Of a stretch of DNA of 20,000 bases, positions 15,001 through 18,000 are shown in pieces; positions within the stretch are counted from its first letter, which is position 1; each line of letters starts with the position of its first letter. Position numbers: made by a program. The stretch comes from Acidimicrobiia bacterium (lineage in GTDB: Bacteria; Actinomycetota; Acidimicrobiia; Spongiisociales; UBA11373): positions 184,354 to 204,353 of the forward strand of contig JBBDMM010000016.1 of assembly GCA_040878325.1 (NCBI GenBank). The letters run 5' to 3'.

Positions 15001-18000
15001 CGGTCAGCTGTTCGCCCATCTGGGCAGCCGGCTCACCCTGGTCGAGGTGCTGGATCGGATCGCACCCTTCGAGGAACCGGAGATCTCCGCCGCCCTCCAG
15101 GCGCACCTCGAGTCGATCGGTACCCGGGTCCTCACCTCGGCCACGATCACCAAGGCGGGCCGCAGTGGCGACCGTCGCTGGCTCGACATCACCATCGCCG
15201 GCATCACGGAGCGAATCGAGGCCGACCAGCTCGTCATCGCCACCGGCCGTCGCGCCGACACCGCCGGCCTCGGCCTGGAGGCCGCGAGAGTGGATACCGA
15301 CCCGCGGGGGCATGTCGTCGTCGACAGTGCGATGGCGACCACCAACCCCCGGGTCTTCGCCGCCGGCGACGTCACCAACCTCCCCCAGTTCGTCTACGTG
15401 GCCGCCCGCTCTGGTGGGGTCGCCGCCGAGCATGCCCTCAGAGGCACCGGCCGACGCATCGACCTCAATAGCATGCCCCGGGTGACGTTCACCAGCCCGC
15501 CCATCGCCTCCGTGGGATTCACCGAGGCTCAGGCCGTCGACGCGGGCCACCGGGTGATCACCTCGCTGCTGCCCCTCAGCGCGGTACCTCGCGCCCTGGT
15601 CGACCATGACACCACCGGACTGGTGAAGCTGGTTGCCGACGAGGCCACCGGCCGGATGCTTGGCGCCCACATCCTCGCCGAGGGTGCCGGCGACGTCATC
15701 CAGGCGGTGGTGATCGGCCTTCAACACCGGGTCACCATCGAAGAGATCGCCGGCACCTTCCACCCCTACCTGACGATGGCCGAGGCACTCAAGCTTGCCG
15801 CCCAAGGATTCTCCAAGGATGTCGCCCACCTGTCCTGCTGTGCCGCTTGACGATCGAAGGGAGCAACAAATGGACGACAGGTACGACCTGGCCGTGATCG
15901 GAGCCGGGATGGGCGGCATCAATGCCGCCTTTCGAGCCGCAGGGCTGGGGGGCCGGGTGGCTCTCATCGAACGCCACAAAGTGGGTGGCACCTGAATCAA
16001 CGTGGGGTGTATCCCCACCAAGGCCCAGGTCGGGTCTGCAAAGGCGATTCAGATGGCGCAGCGGGGGGAGGAGTTCGGGTTTCGGATCGGGCGGCTGGAG
16101 GTCGATTGGCCCCGGATCAGGACCCGCAAGGATGAGATCGTCTCGCTCATCCGGAGCCGGCTGGAACGCCGGATCGATGAGCACCCCCGAATCGACCTGA
16201 TCCGCGGCTCCGCCCGCTTCGCAGGCCCCGGCCGCCTCTCCATCGACGGCCGCGAATTGGAGGCGGAGAAGGTGATCGTCGCTTCCGGCGTGGTACCGGT
16301 GGTACCCGACATCCCCGGGCTCGCAGAAGCGGGATTCGAAACCAATGAGACGGTCATGGACATGGACACGCTTCCCGGGTCGATGGTCGTCATCGGTGGC
16401 GGCCCCGAGGGGATGGAGTTTGCCCAGATGCTCCATCGCTTCGGCGTGAAGGTCACCGTGCTGCAGCGGCGGGGCCGAGTGCTCCCCCGAGAGGATGAAG
16501 AGATATCGACAGCGCTGGAGGCGATCCTCGGGGAGGAGGGCATCGACATCCGCACCCGGGCCGAGCCGACCAAGGTCGAGGCTGTCGGCGGGGGCAGGTT
16601 GGCAGTGACCGCCGATGTGGCCGGCACCACCGAGCGCTTCGAGTGCGACCGTATCTTGGTGACCGCCGGGCGTCGACCCCACCATGTCGGCGACATGGAC
16701 CTGGAGGCGGCAGGCGTCGAGGCGGATCCGGAGACGGGAATCGCCATCGACGACACACTGCAGACCACCGCCCCCAACGTCTGGGCCATGGGAGACGTCA
16801 TCGGCCGCCTGCAGTACACCCACTTCGCCGTGTACACCGCCGGGGTGGCGGTGGACAACGCCCTCAAGGGCGCCGGCCGGGCCTACGAGACGGACCGCAT
16901 CCCCGGGGCGGTGTTCACCGACCCGGAGGTGGCCAGCGTGGGACTCACCGAAGAGGAGGCCGTTACCGCGGGGCGGAGCATCAAGATCGGTCGCCAGCCA
17001 CTGCGGCGAGTGGGCCGGGCCATCGCCATGGGCGAGACTGCCGGATTCGTCAAGTTCGTCGTCGACGCCGACACTGACGAGCTGCTCGGCATGCACGTTC
17101 TCGCCCACCTCGGCGCCGATCTCCTGTCGCAGGGGATCCTGATGCTGCACACCGCGGAACGGAGCATCTCTCCGCTTACCAACTGCATATGCGTCCACCC
17201 CACCCTCTCCGAGGGAGTCAAGGCGGCGGTGACCAACCTGAAACCTGTCGAGGCGGTCGCCACCGCAGCCGGCGACCTGGCCGACTGAAGCGGATGAGTC
17301 CCCAGCGCATGTCCGACATCTAGTCAGTGCCCGTCGGCCACGGCCACCGCTACTCCCCCAGCGCCTACATCGACTTCGGGATCACTGATCCCCCGGGCCG
17401 GACCCAAGCCGACGCGACCAGGCTCAAGGCCCTCTTCGCCGCCGAAGAGACCGGCGACTGACTGCGGCGCGGCGGCCCGTTCTTGGCTTCCGGAAGGGCA
17501 GCCCGCCGAGCACGAGGACAACGAGAGACCGGTCCGACCGGCCCCGGAGGGCCACCCGAACCGGTGTTCCCATTGGCTCTCGGCGCCCCGCTGGGGCACT
17601 AGACAGCTATCGCTTTCTCCGCCTCCTCAGCCCTCGCGACGATGAAACCGGCGAGATCCACGAAGGGATCGAACCCGATCACCTGGGGTGCGTCGGCTAC
17701 GAAGTTGGAGAGGGCGTTGATGTCGTAGAAGTAGGGCCGGCCGTCTCTGGAGTTCACCAGATACTCCACGCCACCGAGGTCCATTCCCGCGCCTTCGATT
17801 ATCCGCTTCGTGATATCGATCACATCCTCGGGTGGTGTGAACGCCTCCACCGGGAGCCCCCGGCCGGAGACGCCGTCGGCGATGCCCGGGACTTCGCAGT
17901 AGTCGGCCGGGCACAGGTTGAATGAGCCCGGGAGGAGCCGGAGGCGAATCGCGTAGAGATACTCGCCGTCGAGGATCTCCACCCTCACGATGCTGTCGCC

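Follow-up and report, generated by a model that had tools for sequence, protein, structure and literature searches.

The window, i.e. the whole stretch of 20,000 nucleotides of Acidimicrobiia DNA that was analysed, carries behind a complete merA the gene of a class I flavoprotein disulfide reductase, which adds a new form to a fold already known and encodes a real enzyme that very probably contains selenium. Judged from the sequence, selenocysteine (Sec) is almost certainly inserted at codon 42. With a probability of roughly one half, we regard the protein as an NADPH-driven selenoenzyme that, during metal stress, would reduce small substrates of the oxidised-thiol or metal-thiolate type.

An in-frame TGA at the interchange position

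The gene and its predicted catalytic residues are located as follows:
15870-17288, plus strand: class I flavoprotein disulfide reductase gene, 472 codons with one internal TGA
15993-15995, plus strand: predicted Sec42 (TGA), the substrate-facing (interchange) residue of U-x-x-x-x-C47
17184-17213, plus strand: C439-x-C441-x-H443-P-T-L-S-E448, the acid-base His-Glu pair with a CxC ahead of it

A GGAG stands ahead of the ATG, and the frame is open from 15870 to 17288 apart from the TGA at codon 42, its sole internal stop, which lies in the context GGT-TGA-INVGCIPTK and is preceded by the FAD motif GAGMGG. The preliminary description had taken the locus for one 472-aa reductase read through this TGA, with Sec in the place of the substrate-facing cysteine. 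Both points are supported. In the CxxxxC motif of MerA, lipoamide dehydrogenase (Lpd), RclA and Gor, the first Cys is the residue to which codon 42 corresponds. The reductase is recovered by a motif-based scan for read-through TGAs and missed by a strict scan for coding score. The sequencing runs that contain its DNA are sediment metagenomes only, with no RNA run among those listed.

The same TGA had previously been noted in 4 of 4 relatives from genomes and 8 of 8 from metagenomes, and this observation could be extended. We collected 34 related loci, 12 of them from genomes and 22 from metagenomes. The site is covered by 26 loci, and TGA is found in every one of these 26 at 58-98% identity; many of them are near-copies, so that 18 distinct 60-mers are left. 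The 119 best other protein matches (57-80% identity) all begin downstream of the TGA, as described before, and GGxC occurs in none of them. Purifying selection acts on both sides of the TGA: dN/dS against the window amounted to 0.03-0.28 over the 36 codons before it (14 of 16 pairs, the other two being saturated) and to 0.10-0.36 after it, although these ratios are rough because substitutions at synonymous sites approach saturation (pS 0.49-0.75). In the L011 copy, a frameshift is present further downstream of the TGA site.

With regard to the decoding machinery, selA, selB, selD and tRNA-Sec are all present in the window genome (G000), and the one tRNA with a TCA anticodon among 50 is tRNA-Sec. 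Full-length SelA was found in 20 of the 22 host genomes tested, and SelB in two of the four tested for it. Genome G408 is without a SelA or SelB match, yet it holds tRNA-Sec and a TGA-containing selD, while no SelA was found in G844, which was examined for SelA alone.

Hairpins downstream of the UGA

Two hairpins follow the UGA in close succession:
16002-16018, plus strand: hairpin H1, stem of 6 bp and loop UGUAU, the latter 12 nt past the UGA, -10.1 kcal/mol
16021-16037, plus strand: hairpin H2, likely the SECIS, 6-7 bp, loop (A)GGU(C), -8.0 kcal/mol

In the accessible text of PMC13188914, a bacterial SECIS is characterized by a loop of 3-9 nt starting with G[G/U], a stem of 4-16 bp, a position 16-37 nt from the UGA and a minimum free energy of at most -7.5. 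H2, with its loop 31-32 nt from the UGA, agrees with all four properties, whereas H1 falls outside the spacing. The hairpin originally put forward was H1, said to start 9 nt after the TGA; in fact it begins 6 nt past the end of the UGA, which brings the loop to a distance of just 12 nt from that codon. Although 98% of the cells in H1 are paired, no pair is altered on both sides. Against a null of synonymous codons, p values of 0.09-0.19 were obtained in 16 of 18 sequences and about 0.6 in the other two, and since approximately one in ten synonymous shuffles produces H1, this hairpin is largely forced by the protein. With its short spacing, the lack of two-sided changes and a p of about 0.1, H1 is not supported as the SECIS, and it is possibly a spacer element.

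The likely SECIS is H2 instead, as far as can be judged from comparing sequences. Its GGT loop is invariant in all 18 sequences. Pair 35-39 is UA in 11 of them, AU in three and unpaired in four (the window's own sequence among the latter), and pair 33-41 is CG in 17 and GC in one, so that covariation concerns two pairs and few independent events. Overall, 93.2% of the cells are paired, compared with 41-56% in controls slid along the alignment, and none of 500 shuffles reached as high a value; the individual base changes carry more weight than this shuffle result, because relatedness inflates the test. The Val codon within the loop is GTA in 11 of 18 sequences, against a background of 5%, and never GTG. 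In the register of H2, branch B pairs at 7 of 7 positions, L079 at 5 of 7 and L080 at 4 of 7; all of these belong to branches at 41-43% identity.

Genomic context and spread of the family

Upstream of the reductase, the following features were identified:
12758-13432, plus strand: peroxiredoxin-like (Prx-like; AhpC/TSA) predicted selenoprotein, W-U-P-Y-C, TGA at 12863
12879-12897: hairpin of the Prx-like gene, GGUC loop
13720-14121, minus strand: MerR-family regulator with three Cys, under the MerR, CadR/PbrR and CueR cut-offs
14138-14169, plus strand: MerR-type promoter recognised by eye, TTGACA and TAGGTT with a 20-nt spacer between them that contains an 8-6-8 dyad
14177-15850, plus strand: complete merA, TIGR02053 560 bits against a cut-off of 454

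As first described, the reductase lies behind a MerR-family gene, which is divergent, and a complete merA, and a predicted UxxC selenoprotein of the Prx type (W-TGA-PYC) is encoded further upstream. The MerA of the window has the N-terminal CxxC domain, a Tyr at the His position and the C-terminal Cys-Cys. Only 19 nt separate the end of merA from the start of the reductase; the operon consists of these two genes alone, with the following genes on the opposite strand, and the divergent merR stands between the Prx-like gene and this unit. A scan for promoters and terminators, which allowed only spacers of 16-18 nt, found none. A search with MshC for a low-molecular-weight thiol pathway reached 294 bits, below the cut-off of 485, and no such pathway was identified.

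For comparison, the close-family loci were grouped by hand into 16 lineages with fetched flanks of up to about 7 kb, leaving out nine loci that were too short or without the gene. merA or merB is nearby in four lineages (window/L008, L010, L034 and L038) and copper or MerR/HMA genes in three (L013 group, L023 group and L068). Thiol-redox genes (Prx/TlpA, AhpD-like CMD, Trx) are found in nine, overlapping with the mer and metal lineages. Among them, three lineages (the window, the L012 group and L015) have a Prx-like W-TGA-xxC gene close by, and CMD genes occur in L011, L015, L066 and L067. An E2 with a lipoyl domain occurs in one lineage (L066), and the flanks of L009, L014 and L016 showed no mer, metal or thiol-redox genes. 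The tie to mercury suggested at the outset is retained for a quarter of the lineages (4/16), but thiol-redox neighbours are commoner (9/16). Furthermore, in 13 related genomes, including the unpublished G1271, MerA exceeds its cut-off in nine and the TGA gene is present in two, which makes the reductase an accessory to mer operons. A TGA flagged in G1271 proved to be the gene's own stop. It has to be considered that neighbours need not share a pathway, because stress genes cluster on islands.

Within the class to which the window belongs, 3 of 401 genomes match the DNA pattern of the active site, as do 1 of 401 in the phylum of G403 and 9 of 94 in that of G405. A looser pattern was matched in 5 of 401 genomes of the window's phylum and in 4 of 98 of the class of G408, one of the four being out of frame; reversed-pattern controls gave zero in every set. 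The match in G580 is out of frame. A same-genus genome of 94% completeness is without the pattern, and a distribution this patchy points to transfer or to loss on many occasions. G351, a genome from the genus of the window, corresponds to L008. Viral contigs gave no pattern matches, and the 839 matches on plasmids are all below 60% identity.

The preliminary description had placed the boundary between Sec and Cys forms at 40% identity, which proved untenable in both directions. A full-length Cys form, P0310, has 54.6% identity and is probably a reversion, judging by its nested position between truncated proteins, while TGA forms are present in the DNA of three further branches at 34-43% identity. 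In the sister branch (G1286 and G1287; 43%), the motif reads GGT-TGA-QNVGC, and the gene order in G1286 is arsR, merE, reductase, with no merA match in the genome at E 1e-120. Branch B (41%), whose sole DNA copy in G834 has a frameshift in that assembly, reads GGT-TGA-VNRGC with HPHPT and a MerA-like LSCC tail; its gene follows CopZ-like and HMA genes, no merA match was found in the genome, and about 40 truncated protein clusters belong to it. Branch C (34%; four genomes of one family) reads GGT-TGA-PNxGC without the catalytic His, and a YHS neighbour is present in three of its four genomes. The protein groups P0008 and P0011, available as protein records only, are all truncated at the TGA site, and in a profile-free search of 1.84 billion representatives, distant proteins also begin just past it. 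Both trees (FastTree and an SH-aLRT run) keep the focal clade apart from MerA and RclA; they disagree on the placement of branch B, and their supports were possibly shifted by rerooting.

Proposed function and comparison with known systems

An AlphaFold2 model of the reductase, calculated with Cys at position 42, reached a pLDDT of 95.9, and Lpd and MerA are among its top structural matches (TM 0.90-0.92). U42 and C47 form the class I redox pair, with a predicted Sec for Cys, and H443 and E448 the HxxxxE motif. The acid-base pair (HPTLSE) is thus kept, and the 16-residue tail is without Cys, in agreement with the earlier account. The CxC before the His is present in 97 of the 109 matches that reach the motif (119 examined), missing in the other 12, and also missing in L009, L016 and L022. 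GGGPEG, which replaces the gate tyrosine, is a trait of the family, and a preference for NADPH is suggested by QRRxR and the lack of an acidic residue at the NAD site.

The reductase scores under every cut-off among the best 25 of 80 NCBIfam matches. The best model is NF004992 / PRK06370 'FAD-containing oxidoreductase' (408 bits, cut-off 629); also below their thresholds are the MerA model TIGR02053 (382 against 454), the lipoamide dehydrogenase model TIGR01350 (381 against 409) and the models of glutathione reductase (306 against 480), mycothione reductase (292 against 501), RclA (267 against 740) and the Har type (234 against 650).

In the proposed mechanism, the gene would encode an intact flavoenzyme of the glutathione-reductase / lipoamide-dehydrogenase fold, homodimeric as is usual for the family. 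SelB would read the hairpin 16021-16037, leading to the insertion of Sec at codon 42. Following the path known from the family, electrons would pass from NADPH, the probable donor, via FAD to the Cys47-Sec42 selenenylsulfide. The Sec42 selenolate would then attack a small soft electrophile entering the dimer cleft, and the other subunit would contribute His443-Glu448 as the acid-base pair, while C439/C441 may serve as a docking or second redox site. The likeliest substrates would be low-molecular-weight oxidised thiols or metal-thiolate adducts arising from mercury, copper or oxidant stress. This assignment is suggested by the kept His-Glu pair, where MerA has a Tyr (according to the accessible part of PMC10587081), by the intact MerA next door and by the mostly thiol-redox neighbours. 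As the second gene of a MerR-controlled merA transcript, presumably co-transcribed, the reductase would back up MerA rather than replace it.

A direct role as a soft-metal reductase, with Sec42 and Cys47 binding Hg(II) (or Cu(II) or Ag(I)), FADH- reducing the metal and C439/C441 replacing the MerA cysteine pair, is possible but doubtful. It would account for merA or merB in 4 of 16 lineages and the copper or MerR/HMA genes in three more, and it gains from the sister branch, whose arsR-merE-reductase order in a genome without a merA match favours a direct metal role, as well as from the Cys-Cys tail of branch B, encoded after CopZ-like and HMA genes in a genome that likewise gave no merA match. 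However, mercury binds selenol very tightly and poisons selenoenzymes, the operon in the window already contains a full MerA, no mer gene is present in the flanks of 12 of 16 lineages, and of the 13 related genomes nine have MerA over the cut-off but only two the TGA gene. At the level of single residues, a MerA without the Cys tail can still reduce Hg (PMC10587081, accessible part), whereas the features described as essential in the accessible part of PMC8261052, namely the vicinal C-terminal Cys pair, Tyr264 and Tyr/Phe605 (Bacillus numbering), are all missing here: there is no C-terminal Cys pair, and Glu99 and His443 stand at the positions of the two aromatic residues.

We tentatively raise a broader idea, according to which bacteria have more than once equipped class I reductases with Sec at their flavin-linked centre for the reduction of mercury or other soft metals. 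This would amount to a selenium-based alternative to MerA, in some genomes in the place of MerA in the operon, which would escape gene callers as well as merA surveys that rely on signatures. If mercury were the substrate, a selenoenzyme would detoxify the very metal that poisons selenoenzymes, and merA surveys would undercount reducers.

It is rather unlikely that the reductase is the dedicated electron donor of the Prx-like selenoprotein or an AhpD-like protein, either directly or via a lipoyl carrier as in lipoamide dehydrogenase. Prx-like W-TGA-xxC genes in three lineages, CMD genes in four loci and the TIGR01350 score of 381 against 409 point in this direction, but the class I site is buried, the tail offers no Cys to shuttle electrons, the divergent merR separates the Prx gene in the window, a lipoyl E2 is nearby in one lineage only, and the nucleotide motif is of the NADPH type, unlike the NAD type of Lpd. 

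An RclA- or Har-like role in reducing HOSCN, HOCl or some oxidant akin to them, as initially suggested, is quite improbable. The fold and HxxxxE are shared, and the first Cys of Har attacks the oxidant (PMC11107202, accessible part), a step at which a selenolate should be faster. The signature of Har given in the same source is the pair of active-site lysines K13 and K16, though, and the reductase has M14 and I17 there; its scores with both models are far below the cut-offs, RclA lies outside the clade, and the runs with this DNA are sediment metagenomes and not hosts. Finally, despite frameshifts or early stops in the copies L011, L061, L063 and L080, it is highly improbable that the TGA marks a genuine stop, owing to a pseudogene, a split gene or an error of sequencing, or that it is decoded as Trp or Cys, given its presence in 26 of 26 loci over 58-98% identity, the purifying selection on both sides, the covarying hairpin, a tRNA-Sec as the sole TCA-anticodon tRNA among 50, and the termination of both merA and the reductase at TGA where their homologues end.

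A UxxxxC class I reductase is missing from a 2026 table of 119 selenoprotein families (PMC13188914, Table 1), which includes the families of Haft and Tolstoy 2025 as its reference 64. The claim of a new selenoprotein family can be upheld in this respect, while its RclA/Har-like label fails on the two-lysine signature. In a literature search with few of the subscription journals in its coverage, the Sec class I reductase family is undescribed, and the accessible parts of PMC9312934, PMC13326102, PMC13745706, PMC12013277, PMC10779653 and the Actinomarina preprint do not name it. Table S2 of BSepDB lists previously reported families, according to the accessible part of the BSepDB paper. At the least, well over 100 sequence clusters make up a selenoprotein group that lacks annotation and is represented in databases by truncated proteins only. 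With P0002 and P0310 (55% identity), a natural pair of Sec and Cys forms is available on which the benefit of selenium can be tested at the interchange position.

Compared with the class I reductases for glutathione, lipoamide and mycothione, the fold, the FAD and NAD(P)H motifs, the x-x-x-x-C loop and HxxxxE are shared, whereas a predicted Sec replaces the interchange Cys, GGGPEG stands for GxGYIG/GGGxIG and a CxC precedes the His; identity to solved structures is about 36% at most. At the NAD site, E. coli Lpd has VEMFD and the reductase QRRGR. MerA has the same fold, provides the best PDB sequence match (5x1y, E 4.5e-87) and shares the operon position here, but the reductase is without the NmerA domain and outside the MerA clade in both trees. 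The hypothiocyanite reductases RclA, Har and S. aureus MerA resemble it in their tail-less class I fold and the His-Glu pair, which makes a small inorganic substrate conceivable, yet K13 and K16 are missing and the scores are about a third of the cut-offs. Three flavin- or metal-linked selenoproteins catalogued in PMC13188914 differ in motif and family, namely the bacterial CoA-disulfide reductase (TIGR03385, UGxP), a metal-binding 'putative mercuric reductase' (NF041115, UxxU) and the type III SQR (NF049943, HxxU), and none of the three models is among the best 25 of the 80 NCBIfam matches to the reductase. Mammalian thioredoxin reductase has both the fold and Sec, and in the accessible parts of the literature examined, Sec in this fold is reported only from the mobile tail of the animal enzyme. 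There, it forms part of a C-terminal Cys-Sec pair while the flavin-linked pair is Cys-Cys, whereas the predicted Sec of the present reductase would belong to the flavin-linked centre itself.

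Other genes of the window and its genome

Upstream of the predicted Sec reductase, two of the window's other genes on the same strand stand out:
6125-7615 (+), DUF3179 protein
7685-9151 (+), third class I reductase of the window, motif GGECTYWAC

In this third reductase, Phe replaces the catalytic His (AFPTLSE), and it scores under every cut-off among the models listed. Sec forms are catalogued for the DUF3179 family, and a DUF3179 gene also lies near the predicted Sec reductase in loci L012 and L065. Elsewhere in the genome (G000), in which selD carries Cys and not Sec, two genes likely encode selenoproteins:
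C12:238523 (-), TlpA/Trx-like, W-U-S-V-C
C6:305519 (+), SelW-like, C-A-V-U

Related reductases in mercury operons and further branches

Related genes were found at the following loci:
L010:1-4918, one-strand cluster of merA, merB, CC-motif protein, MerE-like/thioredoxin fusion, TlpA, CcdA and predicted Sec reductase
L083:5014-7363 (G1286, sister branch), operon of arsR, merE and predicted Sec reductase
L074-L077 (genomes G973, G932, G960 and G1049), branch C reductases
G871:C124:6885-8210 (-), match to a class I reductase, containing a single internal TAG

The short frame SCCTQ-TGA after merB in L010 may be another read-through. The G1286 reductase contains an insertion with CAACAV, and no merA match was found in this genome. 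Branch C reads GGT-TGA-PNxGC, lacks the catalytic His (an IHCELTMSE-like sequence stands there) and shows one long SECIS-like hairpin per gene, with a YHS gene upstream in three of the four loci. The TAG in G871 may be the gene's own stop. Finally, the class I reductases of groups P0008, P0011, P0036, P0042, P0344 and P0439, which start immediately after the first-Cys position, are probably additional Sec branches; the analysis covered them as protein sequences.

A candidate selenium mercuric reductase

L064:4568-5960 (G834:C214), branch B reductase, grouped with protein clusters P0113 and P0396-P0435

This gene carries TGA at the first-Cys position, and approximately 40 truncated protein clusters were assigned to its branch. 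CopZ-like and HMA genes lie upstream, followed downstream by TlpA, CcdA, cupredoxin and weak MerT-like genes. As a candidate selenium mercuric reductase, branch B ranks first; its C-terminal Cys-Cys tail is MerA-like, and His occupies the position of MerA's Tyr.
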